Source: Shigella phage sb2. Taken from it: DNA of 64,000 nt. Every line of letters starts with the position of its first letter. Positions within the stretch are counted from its first letter, which is position 1. Below, piece by piece: positions 34,474 to 43,685 of the stretch. Made by a program: the position numbers and the translations under genes. Where the stretch lies: the sequence record PQ666540. The stretch is one strand, 5' to 3'. A model generated the notes under the pieces. It was not told the DNA's origin. It made no database searches and saw only the letters and a list, made by a program, of their open reading frames with translations.

Positions 34474-34947
34474 TTATTTGAATGATTTGACGTACTGAAT
34501 AGAGCCTTTGCTATTCACGAAAGCGATTTTACCATTTTTGTTATACATGGTAGCAGTACGCTGATAACCATAAGTTTGTTTACCAGATTGATAACCAACT
34601 AATGCAAAATTATCTTCGCCCATTTTATTCTGCTTAGCGCGGATACGTTCATGACCGTGTGCCATAAGAACCTTAGCGTCGCCAGTTGCAATGGATATAC
34701 GAGTTTTTTCATCTTCAACTGTATTAACAAAATCGTCAAATGAATCAAATTTAGCATGAGATTTATTATACAGTTTTCCATCTACTGCATAATTATATCC
34801 CTGTACATCCATCTCAACTTCTGTACCATCATCCAATACAGCAGTGATCTTTTGACCTTTTTTAAATTTCAAAAGATCAGTAAAAGATTCAGCGATAATT
34901 TGAGAATTAATAGCTGCTTCAGTGATAAATTCTTGATATGTTTTCAT
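34474..34947 (-). CDS. internal head protein (IPII/IPIII-type) with capsid-targeting leader
   Basis: 157 aa starting MKTYQEFITEAA, the T4 internal-protein targeting sequence; late promoter upstream. Confidence 0.7.
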   Translation of the reverse strand: MKTYQEFITEAAINSQIIAESFTDLLKFKKGQKITAVLDDGTEVEMDVQGYNYAVDGKLYNKSHAKFDSFDDFVNTVEDEKTRISIATGDAKVLMAHGHERIRAKQNKMGEDNFALVGYQSGKQTYGYQRTATMYNKNGKIAFVNSKGSIQYVKSFK

Positions 34948-34981
34948 GTGTTTCCTTTAAATGTAAATATTTTTACCGTAG

Positions 34982-34989
34982 TATTTATA
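34982..34989 (-). promoter_or_regulatory. late promoter TATAAATA for the internal protein gene
   Basis: Minus-strand TATAAATA ~30 nt upstream of the ip ATG, embedded in the conserved WYKYYGK-coding tail of denV. Confidence 0.55.
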
Positions 34990-35052
34990 CCAGTGTGGCT
35001 TCATTAAAATTTTTTCATCGAGTCGTTGTTTGGTCAATTTAATATCTGATTT

Positions 35053-35385
35053 TCATGGATTATAATAATTTTTACATTCTGCTGGAATATAGCTGATGTC
35101 AGGAACTTCAGTATCTTTTATACTGAACCCACGTTTTAAGCATTCCGTTATAATGTCTGATTGACGCTTTCGCAAAAATTCTAACTTATCATAAAAGAAC
35201 GTAACATGACCAGAGCCTAAAATAAACTCGGAAGATATTTTAAAATCTTTAACCCGCTTACCATTTGCCACATGTTTACGAACTATACCAAAAACACGCG
35301 GCAGTTCACGGTATTCTGCGATTAAATGTTGATCAGCAAGTTCAGATACTAAAGTCAAATTAATACGAGTCATTTTATCACTCAA
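35053..35385 (-). CDS. denV: endonuclease V homolog, ORF ends prematurely at in-frame TGA
   Basis: [29 protein letters not shown]...[17 protein letters not shown] matches T4 EndoV; stops at codon 111 (T4 protein is 138 aa); conserved tail continues in frame to ~34957. Confidence 0.75.
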
Positions 35386-35432
35386 AGTAACTGTGAATAT
35401 ACTATCACAATTCTAGGAGAAAGTAAACAACT

Positions 35433-35927
35433 TTATAGATTTTTATACGCGTCCCAAGTTCCGGTTCTAAACGTTGCAATAACTCGTTTTGCACGGTTAG
35501 GTGTTTGATTATACCATCTACTTTTAGCTAAGTTAACTGCTGCTTCATCCCAGCGTTTTTGTTGGAGCATACGTAGAGAATTAGTAAATCCTGCTACGCC
35601 GGTTTCCCCCATTTGGAAGACCATGTTAATCAATGCACATCGACGAACAGCATCAAGAGAATCATAAACTGGTTTTAATTTAGCATTTCTCAGAATTCCG
35701 CGAACAGCAGCATCGACATCCTGATTAAAGAGTTTTTCAGCCTCGTCTTTTGTAATTACACCATTGCAATTACGCCCAATAGCTTTATCTAATTCAGATT
35801 TAGCAACGCTTAGTGATGGACTTTTAGTAAGCAAATGACCAATGCCAATAGTGTAATAACCTTCTGTGTCTTTATAGATTTTAAGTCTAAGACCTTCATC
35901 TATACGTAACATTTCAAATATATTCAT
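35433..35927 (-). CDS. e: lysozyme (endolysin) gp e
   Basis: 164 aa, [33 protein letters not shown]...; differs from recalled T4 lysozyme at two positions. Confidence 0.97.
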
Positions 35928-35940
35928 AATACCTCCTAAG

Positions 35941-35961
35941 TATTTATAGAAGGTATTTATA
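35941..35961 (-). promoter_or_regulatory. tandem late promoters upstream of e
   Basis: Two minus-strand TATAAATA copies 14 and 27 nt upstream of the e ATG. Confidence 0.55.
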
Positions 35962-35963
35962 AA

Positions 35964-36419
35964 TTAAAAGAGGCTGTTCATTATTCGGTAAAGTGAAGGG
36001 CCCATCACATATTGCCACTGAGTACGAGGAATAAGAGCAAAAGCATCCATCTCTGGAATCATAACGCCATCTTTATTTTCAAAATAAGACTCGCAATGGC
36101 AATTTCTGAACATCTCATGCTCTACTGGAATCGTATAATAAAATAACTGTAAGTCTTTATTACTAGAATATTTAAATACACCTAGGTCTTCTAGAAGGTC
36201 TGGATTATAATTATTAAAACCAGTCTCTTCTGAGCATTCTCTTCGTGCTGCATCTAGTGCGCTTAAATCAGAATTTTCTACACGGCCCTTTGGAATATCC
36301 CAGCGATGTGCCATCATTCCAGGCTTACGAGAACCAGTAACTCGTCCCATAAATAAATCTTTATCTTCTGTCATAAAGATAATACCAGCTGATAGTGTTT
36401 TCATTTTAATTTCCTGCAT
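35964..36419 (-). CDS. nudE: Nudix hydrolase NudE
   Basis: 151 aa with Nudix box GRVENSDLSALDAARRECSEETGF. Confidence 0.85.
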   Translation of the reverse strand: MQEIKMKTLSAGIIFMTEDKDLFMGRVTGSRKPGMMAHRWDIPKGRVENSDLSALDAARRECSEETGFNNYNPDLLEDLGVFKYSSNKDLQLFYYTIPVEHEMFRNCHCESYFENKDGVMIPEMDAFALIPRTQWQYVMGPSLYRIMNSLF

Positions 36420-36889
36420 TCAGTGATAAAGTTATTTAAATTTTGAGCATATTTCTTTTCATCAAAAATCTTTTGCTGCCTACGTAACCGCCATGGCATT
36501 TCAATGAACATGTACCATATTCCTGATAGTATTGCTGCTGTAAAAATATTAACAAGTATGGTTAAAAGAATCCAATCTCCTATTCTGTCCATTGGATTTT
36601 TTATAAAAAAGTAAAACACAAACGATGATATAGGAAGACTAATGATATACCACAGAATAACCATTTTATCTGTGAACCAATCAGCGTTCGTTAATTTAGC
36701 ACGACCATTATGAATGCACACGAATTTATCGTCTGTTATAGTAGATGGCTTAACTTGTTGATATCCCATTCTAAACTCCCTAATCAACAAATTTTTCATA
36801 TCTTCGGAACAGCCATTCCAATCAACTCTATCAACTGGAATGCCATCATCCCCATCATCTAAATCATACCAGAGAGTTTTTAAAATCAT
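36401..36889 (-). CDS. membrane protein (e.2 position)
   Basis: 162 aa, C-terminal TM helices, ends ECRKLK at a repeated junction motif. Confidence 0.5.
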   Translation of the reverse strand: MILKTLWYDLDDGDDGIPVDRVDWNGCSEDMKNLLIREFRMGYQQVKPSTITDDKFVCIHNGRAKLTNADWFTDKMVILWYIISLPISSFVFYFFIKNPMDRIGDWILLTILVNIFTAAILSGIWYMFIEMPWRLRRQQKIFDEKKYAQNLNNFITECRKLK

Positions 36890-42212: not shown

Positions 42213-42299
42213 TGGTACGAGAAGTGGGACTCGAACCCACAAGGAAATCATTCCGCAGCATTTTAAGTGCTGTGCCTTTACCAATTTGGCCATTCTCGC
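42213..42299 (-). tRNA. tRNA-Leu (UAA), long variable arm
   Basis: Acceptor GCGAGAA/UUCUCGU, anticodon loop CUUAAAA, long variable arm, T-loop UUCGAGU, encoded CCA. Confidence 0.8.
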
Positions 42300-42300
42300 G

Positions 42301-42373
42301 CTGGGAATAAAGGACTCGAACCTTTGCATCCTGGAATCAAAATCCAGTGCCTTACCAACTTGGCTAATTCCCA
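42301..42373 (-). tRNA. tRNA-Gln (UUG), no encoded CCA
   Basis: Acceptor UGGGAAU/AUUCCCA, anticodon loop UUUUGAU, T-loop UUCGAGU. Confidence 0.75.
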
Positions 42374-42470
42374 ATTATTAACAAAGGCTCTCAAACAAGA
42401 ACCCTTGATGATAGAGGGTATTAATCAGTGCGATATGAGTTAATAATAACAAATAATTCTTAAAGCATAT

Positions 42471-42758
42471 TTACCATTTATGATAATACATATTTACGAT
42501 GCATTCAAGATCCAAAGGATTCTTGAAAATATCATATTCAAGAGGACCTTTTTCTGTTTCAATAAAGAAATCAAAATTTACTGTATTAAATTTACGTTCT
42601 TCCTTTACTAATTTAACTTGAGAAGATGAACGGTCAATGTAAACCTTTTCAACTTCAAAATATGTTAAAATGCCATAATCATCAATCAAGGCTTTAGCTG
42701 CTTCTTGATCATATTTATATCCATTTTCAATGGATGATACTTTCGCATAAAGAATCAT
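42471..42758 (-). CDS. hypothetical protein
   Basis: 95-aa ORF upstream of the tRNA cluster. Confidence 0.45.
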   Translation of the reverse strand: MILYAKVSSIENGYKYDQEAAKALIDDYGILTYFEVEKVYIDRSSSQVKLVKEERKFNTVNFDFFIETEKGPLEYDIFKNPLDLECIVNMYYHKW

Positions 42759-42760
42759 TA

Positions 42761-43171
42761 TTAACCTTCATCAACAATAGTATGTGTATTGGCATTTACG
42801 ATTTGCCACCAATCGAAACGATTAGAACCATAATCTGGTTTGTTTTCATTTTCTTTGATAATGTCACGGAGTTCATCTTCTGTTTCAGCATACGCAATCA
42901 AATCAGCATATCCACCGCGAGGATAGTAATTATCGCCTGCGAACAAAAGAAAATTTACTTTAGATTGGTCTACATAATAATGCTCTTTAGGATATTTAGT
43001 TCCTCTCCAATCAGTTACTTCAACATAACGGTAAGAAAATCCATTTTTACTTTCAACCCAACTCCACGCTTCAAAAGGAGTATTAAAAACTCTATCAGGT
43101 ATTAAATTACCTTCAAAATGAGAAGGATTTGCATAATCCCCAGCATAAACATAATATTCGTTAATATTCAT
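42761..43171 (-). CDS. hypothetical protein
   Basis: 136-aa aromatic-rich ORF. Confidence 0.5.
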   Translation of the reverse strand: MNINEYYVYAGDYANPSHFEGNLIPDRVFNTPFEAWSWVESKNGFSYRYVEVTDWRGTKYPKEHYYVDQSKVNFLLFAGDNYYPRGGYADLIAYAETEDELRDIIKENENKPDYGSNRFDWWQIVNANTHTIVDEG

Positions 43172-43357
43172 TTATTCATCTTTAGAAATTTTATCCATAA
43201 CGATAGCGATTAAACCAATTAAAAATGATACTACAAGTGAAAACACATTTTCTGCTGTAGTTAATAATCCGCATATAAATCCAACAAACATTGAAAAACT
43301 AAAAGCAGAAGCAGAAATTGCAATAGCAACATTTCTAATTAATTCACAACGTTTCAT
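43172..43357 (-). CDS. small membrane protein
   Basis: 61 aa, two hydrophobic helices; early promoter and SD GAGGAG upstream. Confidence 0.45.
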   Translation of the reverse strand: MKRCELIRNVAIAISASAFSFSMFVGFICGLLTTAENVFSLVVSFLIGLIAIVMDKISKDE

Positions 43358-43385
43358 TTTATTCTCCTCAGTAGTTGATAGGGTA

Positions 43386-43415
43386 ATAGTATCACAACTA
43401 AAACCCTATGTAAAC
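43386..43415 (-). promoter_or_regulatory. early promoter with flanking inverted repeat
   Basis: Minus strand TGTTTACA, spacer, TACTAT; -10 lies between inverted repeat ATAGGGT/ACCCTAT. Confidence 0.45.
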
Positions 43416-43427
43416 AACTTTGTGAAA

Positions 43428-43685
43428 TTATTTTAAATCTTCTAATCGTTTCTTCATCTTAGAACCATTTTTAGCAATTTCTCCTGCATCGGAGCATAAT
43501 GCTAAAAGTGCTTTAACTTTAGTTTGGTCTCCTTTAAAAGATGAAGGATTGACCGCAGCAGCAAGTTCTTTAATACGAGAGAAAAGACGCTCAGCTTCAG
43601 CTAAAGCCATTCCAAGCTTTACTTCCATACCGTGGGAAGATTCAGTGATAGTAGTTTTTGTAGCAAACTCTTTGAAAGTTTTCAT
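43428..43685 (-). CDS. internal protein I-locus protein with capsid-targeting-like leader
   Basis: 85 aa starting MKTFKEFATK, directly upstream of 57B where T4 carries ipI. Confidence 0.5.
   Translation of the reverse strand: MKTFKEFATKTTITESSHGMEVKLGMALAEAERLFSRIKELAAAVNPSSFKGDQTKVKALLALCSDAGEIAKNGSKMKKRLEDLK

Follow-up and report, generated by a model that had tools for sequence, protein, structure and literature searches.

Four open reading frames (ORFs) of the Shigella phage sb2 (sequence record PQ666540) start with a leader of the kind that targets the internal proteins (IPs) of phage T4 to the prohead, the capsid-targeting sequence (CTS). They lie in a window of 64,000 nucleotides, the whole stretch of DNA that we analyzed, and are all encoded on the minus strand: ORF1 (34474..34947; 157 aa; leader MKTYQEFITE↓A, where the arrow marks the predicted cleavage site), ORF2 (39985..40548; 187 aa; MKTYAEFLTE↓A), ORF3 (40674..41147; 157 aa; MKSYAQFLNE↓A), and ORF4 (43428..43685; 85 aa; MKTFKEFATKTTITE↓S). 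We scanned all the ATG ORFs of 40 aa or more, from either strand (n=608), for the N-terminal motif MK[TS][YF]x[EQ]F and retrieved only these four, when the amino acid composition of the window leads one to expect 0.0033 by chance. A looser leader pattern returned the same four among the 608, and no real ORF starting with GTG or TTG carries the motif. The initial annotation of this stretch had listed the four ORFs at these coordinates with these N-termini, and the scan bears it out.

ORF1, ORF2, and ORF3 have the 10-residue leader of T4 IPII and IPIII, MKTY(Q/A)(E/Q)F(I/L)xE↓A, which ends in [IL]-x-E followed by Ala, with the tripeptide at residues 8-10 (ITE↓A, LTE↓A, and LNE↓A). The initial annotation had described a leader of about ten residues in all the four ORFs, and this holds for these three. 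It does not hold for ORF4, which has the longer leader of the IPI type, where the first [LI]-x-E is the ITE↓S at residues 13-15. For comparison, the leader of T4 IPI is MKTFKEFTSTTTPVSTITE↓A, with ITE↓A at 17-19. The attribution of the leaders to the T4 type was correct, and they cover the residues identified by mutagenesis of the IPIII leader, where positions 4 and 7 are involved in targeting and positions 8 and 10 in processing (PMC9026906). In all four ORFs, residue 4 is Y or F and residue 7 is F.

One might object that the shared N-terminus is hitch-hiking with a cassette for recombination or translation initiation, in which case ORF2 and ORF3 would encode unpackaged cytoplasmic accessory proteins. 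Indeed, ORF1 and T4 ipII have almost the same 5' untranslated region (5'UTR) and first ~30 nt, and so do ORF4 and T4 ipI. The genes are also in cassette-like units bounded by repeats, and the packaging of the products of ORF2 and ORF3 is itself a prediction. However, the 5'UTRs of ORF2 and ORF3 are unlike those of the other ip genes and yet the leader peptide is kept. The leader codons also vary synonymously: Thr3 is ACA, ACC, or ACT, Glu6 is GAA or GAG, and Tyr4 is TAT here and TAC in bas37_0260 of the relative Bas37 (phage KarlGJung, MZ501089). Hence, conservation takes place at the level of the peptide. Furthermore, the targeting and cleavage residues are retained by divergent members of the family of ORF2 and ORF3 (~20-30% identity), whether these come from T4-like phages of Yersinia and Klebsiella or from metagenomes. 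All 11 of those we compared (mean pairwise identity of 0.34) have an N-terminal [YF]xxF[LV] core, at positions 4-8 in nine and shifted by one in two, and in all 11 a Glu closing an [LIVM]-x-E motif follows within a few residues of the core. Their starts include MLKFNEFLAE↓G, MINFSDFLNE↓G, MKSFSSFLNE↓G, and MLEYSEFLKE↓L, as well as one long form, …FNEFV…ITE↓S. Finally, 10 leader residues suffice to package foreign proteins in T4 (PMC9026906). We regard hitch-hiking as highly improbable.

The predicted mature products of the four ORFs are basic and rich in lysine (7.5-19.7 kDa, isoelectric point (pI) 8.95-9.5, Lys 11.6-14.7%), like the T4 IPI*, IPII*, and IPIII* (pI 9.0-9.65, Lys 13-15.6%); about 9-11% of the ORFs in the window are equally basic and lysine-rich. 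In sequence, however, the mature forms are unrelated to the T4 proteins. Following a suggestion of the initial annotation, we compared the proteins of the window, from residue 16 to the end, with IPI, IPII, and IPIII using pairwise BLASTP and observed no homology, with nothing better than E = 0.08 for ORF1-3 or for ORF4. BLASTP of the four mature domains against each other gave no significant match either. PDB sequence and profile searches with the mature proteins revealed no relatives among solved structures, IPI* included. ORF4 is predicted to be helical from the character of its sequence, in contrast to the beta-sandwich with flanking helices of IPI* (PMC3012670). In Pfam, the four proteins matched only DUF7412 (ORF1), with coiled-coil noise below the threshold for ORF2, and they matched nothing in NCBIfam. 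The comparison with other T-even variants, also suggested by the initial annotation, identified ORF1 as Ip4/IpIV and ORF4 as Ip5/IpV. These are the same genes as in T2, RB14, RB51, ime09, and PST, with no substantive difference, and we found no target for either protein in the accessible literature. ORF2 and ORF3 are labelled 'hypothetical protein' among the matches listed.

ORF1, the precursor of Ip4/IpIV, has a predicted mature form of about 16.5 kDa with a pI of 8.95. It matches the Pfam family PF24183 (DUF7412, E=5e-95) and phrog_3155, an 'internal virion protein', and it is 98-99% identical to Ip4 of ime09, IpIV of the Yersinia phage PST, and the 'internal virion protein' of T2. Ip4/IpIV is annotated as an internal head protein in ime09, RB14, RB51, and PST, and as an 'internal head/virion protein' in T2. 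Homologues are present in 470 phage records, with identities of 60-80% in T4-like phages of Klebsiella, Salmonella, and Serratia. In this family the leader residues at positions 4 and 7 are conserved and both E10 and E20 are invariant, the latter within an invariant second motif, IAE↓S, at residues 18-20. The AlphaFold2 model of Ip4 is of low confidence (predicted local distance difference test, pLDDT, of 54.5), and a Foldseek search with it against the PDB gave no match at E <= 0.001.

ORF1 is located between denV and vs.8, on the other side of denV from the T4 ipII and ipIII. In T4 these two genes occupy the interval between e and denV, which is empty in the window. The 5'UTR of ORF1, including the ribosome-binding site, and its first ~30 nt match those of T4 ipII almost perfectly. 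An exact late-promoter box, TATAAATA, is found at 34982..34989 on the minus strand, 35 nt upstream of the ATG and within the 3' coding end of denV (W-Y-K-Y). T4, which has no ip gene between denV and vs.8, reads the synonymous TACAAATA at this position; the box of ORF1 arises from a synonymous TAT codon absent in T4. We observed that denV itself is interrupted. Its ORF (35053..35385, minus strand) has a nonsense change from TGC to TGA at 35053-35055 relative to the phage sb3 (CCATGCAAA vs CCATGAAAA), which cuts endonuclease V short at about codon 106 of 138. The 3' coding remnant beyond the TGA is still conserved and holds the late box used by Ip4. Between e and denV, at 35399-35434, there is a weaker copy (family D3) of the early-promoter/stem-loop repeat found on both sides of ORF4, which may be the footprint of an empty IP cassette site.

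ORF4, the precursor of Ip5/IpV, has a predicted mature form of about 7.5 kDa with a pI of 9.46 and belongs to phrog_3499, 'internal head protein'. Its identity is 95-99% with Ip5/IpV of RB14, RB51, ime09, and PST, where the protein is likewise annotated as an internal head protein, 97.6% with the copy of T2, annotated as an 'internal head/virion protein', and 99% with bas37_0261. It takes the place of IPI at the ipI locus, between 57B and trna.4, with only ~70 bp between it and the trna.4 homologue. The two genes share the long type of leader (MKTFKEF…ITE↓) and a near-identical promoter/stem-loop, the 75 nt located 5' of ORF4 being almost the same as the region upstream of T4 ipI. A paralogue with 46-47% identity adjoins e in other phages. 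Hence, the ORF4 family occupies both classical IP loci. As judged from the repeats around it, ORF4 is bracketed as a cassette by two copies of a 69-nt direct repeat that are 83% identical (family D1). The upstream copy (43705..43773, minus strand) includes an early promoter of the T4 type, TTTACA-17-TACTAT (43744-43716), preceded by an upstream TG and overlapped by a stem-loop. The downstream copy (43375..43443, minus strand) begins at the stop codon of ORF4 and serves the next gene. A weaker copy, 61% identical to the repeat of this family, is present at 39778-39846, upstream of e.8.

ORF2 and ORF3 differ from the other two in that their family has no assigned function. The predicted mature ORF2 (177 aa, 19.7 kDa, pI 9.46) has no further [LI]-x-E site and is close in size and charge to IPIII* (183 aa, 20.4 kDa, pI 9.65), while the predicted mature ORF3 is of about 16.0 kDa, with a pI of 9.5 and a second LNE↓A at residues 13-15. 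Both belong to PHROG 2280 (phrog_2280, 'unknown function') and their full-length alignment has 26% identity. By these two comparisons they are paralogues, a relation that is visible only in this way and not by BLASTP of the mature domains. We found 164 phage records matching ORF2 and 511 matching ORF3, all 'hypothetical protein' among the matches listed, and 163 of the 164 records matching ORF2 are at least 95% identical to it. Relatives in a collection of 5.8 billion proteins are likewise labelled 'hypothetical protein' among the matches listed. The family is very small: a profile run exhaustively against 1.84 billion representatives retrieved 16 proteins, and these matches gave no tie to any characterized protein family. 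The AlphaFold2 model of ORF2, computed with the family alignment, is of low confidence (pLDDT of 52.3).

In T4, the interval between e.8 and rnaC holds only non-coding DNA. In the window it contains the two genes, which form a tandem insertion of ~1.24 kb with two modules, each made of a promoter, an ORF, and a terminator. Collinearity with T4 extends through rnaD and rnaC up to the rnaC terminator (…GGTTGGGGCTTTTT; 41202..41225, minus strand), which is the upstream boundary of the insertion. T4 then reads GGTATCTAAGCC…, a sequence that the window has only past the terminator of ORF2 (…ATAGGGCTTTTT, followed by GGTATCTAGGCC…). Directly after the rnaC terminator comes the exact late-promoter box TATAAATA of ORF3 (41188..41195, minus strand), 41 nt upstream of its ATG. 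The terminator of ORF3 (40645..40670, minus strand) is an 88%-identical direct repeat of that of rnaC (family D2, 40630-40669 and 41189-41228). It is followed by the putative late box of ORF2, AATAAATA, which we identified from the sequence at 40587..40594 (minus strand), 39 nt upstream of the ATG. The module of ORF2 ends with a hairpin and a T-run (39958..39976, minus strand), and collinearity with T4 resumes right after. The terminators flanking ORF2 are only 63% identical to each other. The point of insertion of the modules of ORF3 and ORF2 is a GGGCTTTTT terminator. The situation differs from that of the T4 ipII and ipIII, which have an early-promoter/stem-loop upstream, whereas ORF1, ORF2, and ORF3 have late-promoter boxes.

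This organization recalls the mobile cassettes associated with IPs and with promoter-early stem-loops, PeSLs (Repoila 1994; Arbiol 2010; Comeau 2014), and it agrees with the published idea that cassettes are shuffled at IP loci. The early-promoter/stem-loop repeat on either side of ORF4 is the IP-associated element of Repoila 1994, which Arbiol 2010 regards as analogous to PeSLs, and repeated terminator hairpins of the form GGGC…GCCC delimit ORF3 and ORF2. The modules between e.8 and rnaC differ from those cassettes by having late boxes and terminators and no early promoters. In other words, repeated stem-loops of the kind seen at hyperplastic loci accompany ORF4 (D1) and ORF3/ORF2 (D2 and the terminators), while ORF1 has only the 5' block shared with ipII. 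Two IP loci, described as highly variable, and over 30 known IP variants are mentioned in the accessible literature (PMC2839356). We found no description of the interval between e.8 and rnaC as an IP locus in this literature, although the pair may be among the variants listed in Comeau 2007, the source of the figure of >30. We infer from the leaders and the gene order that ORF2 and ORF3 are new IP-type genes at a third site, outside the two classical loci.

To place these genes in context, we compared the region with those of other phages. Along its whole length, the interval 33000-45200 has 96-97% identity with the Shigella phages sb3, pSs-1, sb1, and sb4, and it has ~95% identity with many Tequatrovirus coliphages; by this measure the phage is a Tequatrovirus. 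Its minus-strand gene order is that of T4: gene 1, 57A, 57B, the ipI locus, trna.4 to trna.2, the tRNA cluster, rnaD/rnaC, the insertion, e.8 to e.2, nudE, e, denV, Ip4, and vs.8. For ARRANGEMENTS in relatives, we recorded the CTS genes of each genome at the ipI locus, in the e/denV region, and between e.8 and rnaC, in this order. T4 has IPI at the first and IPIII and IPII at the second, T2 has IpV with another IP and then IpIV, and PST has IpV and IpVI followed by IpIII and IpIV. Bas37 has IpV-like and IpVI-like genes, none at the second locus, and ORF3 with ORF2 at the third. Bas44 has IPI with an IpVI-like gene, IpIV, and ORF3; ime09 has Ip5, an Ip5 paralogue with Ip4, and ORF3 with ORF2; HY01 has IPI, an Ip4-sized ORF, and an ORF3-sized ORF. 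The window, sb3, and pSs-1 have Ip5, Ip4, and ORF3 with ORF2. A genome thus normally has three to five CTS genes, and it is their combination that varies. The claim of the initial annotation that the arrangement differs from that of T4 was accurate, given the empty e-denV interval, Ip4 between denV and vs.8, Ip5 in place of IPI, and the two CTS genes between e.8 and rnaC. We also considered the possibility that ORF2 and IPIII are mutually exclusive, but this is unsupported, since T2 and Bas44 lack both.

We think that all four genes encode precursors of T4-type IPs, which would be loaded into the head, trimmed, co-injected with the DNA, and probably used against host defences, and we give this interpretation a probability of roughly 0.78. 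The CTS, with its aromatic residue at position 4 and Phe7, would tie the precursor to the scaffolding core during prohead assembly. The prohead protease gp21 would then cut after the Glu of the [LI]-x-E motif, i.e., Glu10 in ORF1-3 and Glu15 in ORF4; ORF1 might be cut again after Glu20, and ORF3 after Glu15. The resulting basic, lysine-rich products of ~16.5, 19.7, 16.0, and 7.5 kDa (ORF1 to ORF4) would stay amid the packaged DNA, be ejected with it, and be active at the first moments of infection, each most likely against a different 'first-response' defence of the host. The genes themselves would be portable cassettes: ORF4 within its early-promoter/stem-loop repeats, ORF3 and ORF2 as tandem late-promoter modules, and ORF1 with the 5'UTR and first codons of ipII. 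There is good support for the loading and moderate support for the function. For ORF2 and ORF3, the steps of packaging, cleavage, and injection are predicted from the sequence, and for all four proteins the role against host defences is putative.

There are precedents for such a role. IPI* inhibits the type IV restriction system GmrS/GmrD (PMC3012670), and IPII inhibits the fused GmrSD/BrxU of ECOR21 (bioRxiv 10.1101/2023.04.06.535777). IPIII is required on ECOR17, where the protein supplied by the host acts without its CTS (PMC9391042). Finally, bas37_0260, a CTS protein encoded at the ipI locus, inhibits McrBC (HIDEN-SEQ preprint, bioRxiv 10.1101/2025.11.20.689424). Like ORF4, the latter and IpVI of PST combine a CTS with a small unrelated cargo, and they occupy the same hyperplastic locus, beside the Ip5 homologue. 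We considered ORF4 as a candidate McrBC inhibitor, but this was ruled out: the inhibitor is a different gene, absent from the window and 19% identical to ORF4 outside the leader.

The same preprint provides data on close homologues of three of the genes, since bas37_0243, bas37_0244, and bas37_0261 are 99% identical to ORF2, ORF3, and ORF4. The figures below are from its Extended Data Tables 6 (T4) and 7 (Bas37), and are given as TA sites hit by transposon insertions and as log2 fold changes (log2FC) relative to K-12. In bas37_0261, the Ip5 homologue, 18 of the 18 sites were hit and the gene is non-essential, but its insertions are depleted on the uropathogenic strain CFT073 (log2FC -2.09, adjusted p about 0) and not on CFE299 or CFE303 (-0.01 each). 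Its upstream neighbour, 57B, is also depleted on CFT073 (-1.56), possibly because of a polar effect. The suggestion of the initial annotation that the cargo could have different host-defence targets is plausible, considering the lack of relatedness of the mature domains with IPI, IPII, and IPIII. The fitness defect of bas37_0261 is, among these three strains, specific to CFT073. We also noted that the e.6 homologue of the window (38259..38852, minus strand) corresponds in position, and in its length of 594 nt, to bas37_0240, a match made by position and not by alignment. On CFT073, bas37_0240 has a log2FC of -6.49 (adjusted p about 0), the strongest depletion among neighbouring rows, and on CFE303 a weak and non-significant one (-1.37). 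These values point to a role of e.6 that is specific to the host and has not been described.

Several observations weigh against our interpretation. Genes 21 and 22, encoding gp21 and the scaffold, are outside the 64-kb window; the prohead protease and scaffold are annotated in the near-identical relative Bas37. ORF4 has only an early promoter and no late box, the box of ORF2 matches at only 7 of 8 positions, and TATAAATA is not enriched in the window (12 found vs 11 expected). Hence, the argument on promoters depends on position, strand, and the comparison with T4. We found no virion proteomics in the literature for the products of the four ORFs, the study of Sfk20 being restricted to sodium dodecyl sulphate polyacrylamide gel electrophoresis. 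Both Ip4 and Ip5 are present in T2, and yet this phage is restricted by the GmrSD systems of CT596 and UTI89 (PMC4437046), and by that of ECOR21 unless IPII is supplied (bioRxiv 10.1101/2023.04.06.535777), which evidently excludes these three systems as targets of Ip4 and Ip5. The homologue of ORF3, bas37_0244, is non-essential (29 of 34 sites hit) and neutral on CFT073, CFE299, and CFE303. Finally, bas37_0243, the homologue of ORF2, was hit at only one of its 48 sites and is called 'Essential', unlike the dispensable canonical IPs. As a separate observation on virions, one of the five major bands of HY01 was assigned to a 'hypothetical protein' by matrix-assisted laser desorption/ionization (PMC5201272); in this phage, HY01_0115 (Ip4-sized, 4091-4564 of the HY01 sequence L008) and HY01_0126 (ORF3-sized, 9564-10037) are both annotated as hypothetical.

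The intolerance of bas37_0243 to insertions is an unexplained lead, and the authors of the preprint do not discuss this gene. For comparison, T4 ipI, ipII, and ipIII tolerate insertions (24/24, 22/23, and 42/46 sites) and are non-essential (bioRxiv 10.1101/2025.11.20.689424). It could be that the main function of ORF2, and perhaps of ORF3, is in the structure of the head core or in the condensation of DNA, as a functional stand-in for IPIII on which the lineage came to depend, and not in anti-defence. The size and pI of mature ORF2 are close to those of IPIII*, as described above. A prediction of low confidence also makes ORF2 entirely helical, with a long hairpin of helices at its C-terminus. 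Having no internal [LI]-x-E, it should persist in the head; it is extremely conserved, and both the window and Bas37 lack IPII and IPIII. Yet T4, T2, PST, Bas44, and HY01 are viable without ORF2, T2 and Bas44 lack IPIII as well, and IPIII is dispensable in T4. The label 'Essential' may also reflect insertion effects, as discussed next. Overall, we find a structural stand-in improbable.

It is also conceivable that the scarcity of insertions is a technical or dominant-negative artefact, uninformative on the normal role of ORF2. The module might have been deleted from the laboratory stock between repeated terminators, since related terminator repeats flank it, or truncated CTS fusions might poison head assembly. 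In T4, hoc and inh are classical examples of dispensable genes. In the transposon data, hoc, inh, and uvsW are called 'Essential' in both T4 and Bas37, together with a homing endonuclease in Bas37 (bioRxiv 10.1101/2025.11.20.689424). Hence, the label can reflect something other than true essentiality, and the authors themselves cite locus-dependent effects and technicalities of the classification. There appears to be locus-dependent insertion intolerance around hoc-inh-seg-uvsW. On the other hand, the neighbours of bas37_0243 on both sides have 85-100% of their sites hit, the two terminators flanking ORF2 have the low identity given above, and the recovery of one insertion indicates that the region was probably present in the stock. 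An artefact is a serious possibility, to which we give somewhat less than even odds. In the most far-reaching reading, the interval between e.8 and rnaC would be a previously unrecognized third IP locus of T-even phages in which the ORF2 family is an injected head protein indispensable on E. coli K-12. We hold this to be rather unlikely. Such a protein could serve as an antidote, either to a chromosomal defence of K-12 or to a toxin carried by the phage, or it could be a replacement of IPII and IPIII that has become obligatory; it would be the first indispensable IP.

The RNA genes next to the insertion deserve some remarks. The tRNA cluster (41542-42373) encodes 10 tRNAs (Arg, Asn, Tyr, Met, Thr, Ser, Pro, Gly, Leu, and Gln), where T4 has eight, and it lacks the homing endonuclease of the segB type that interrupts the clusters of T4, PST, and Bas37. 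An Rfam scan of the region identified only tRNAs, rnaD and rnaC having no Rfam family. The homologue of rnaD and rnaC (~41197-41541, minus strand) is nearly identical to the stable RNAs of T4. It is annotated in relatives as a 351-nt 'hypothetical protein' (bas37_0245, the ime09 gene noted 'RB69ORF150c', and HY01_0127). This coding sequence is probably spurious; in the corresponding stretch of the window, no ORF exceeds 50 aa.

These results introduce no new principle, as the diversity of IPs (>30 variants) and the shuffling of their cassettes are established, and their novelty is modest. ORF1 (Ip4/IpIV) and ORF4 (Ip5/IpV) were already known, both being present in T2; what is new, with respect to the accessible literature, is the identification of ORF2 and ORF3 as IP-type genes and of the third locus. 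Nevertheless, injected IPs are the earliest-acting anti-defence tools of T-even phages, and only four of them (IPI, IPII, IPIII, and bas37_0260/IpVI) have known or partly known targets. The recognition of a leader that looks functional in PHROG 2280 adds two candidate injected effectors to this set, and a third cassette site. Many of the genomes carrying ORF2 and ORF3 are those of coli and Shigella phages that are candidates for therapy. Furthermore, public transposon data can now be tied to genes of this type: the homologue of Ip5 is conditionally needed on CFT073, and that of ORF2 does not tolerate insertions.

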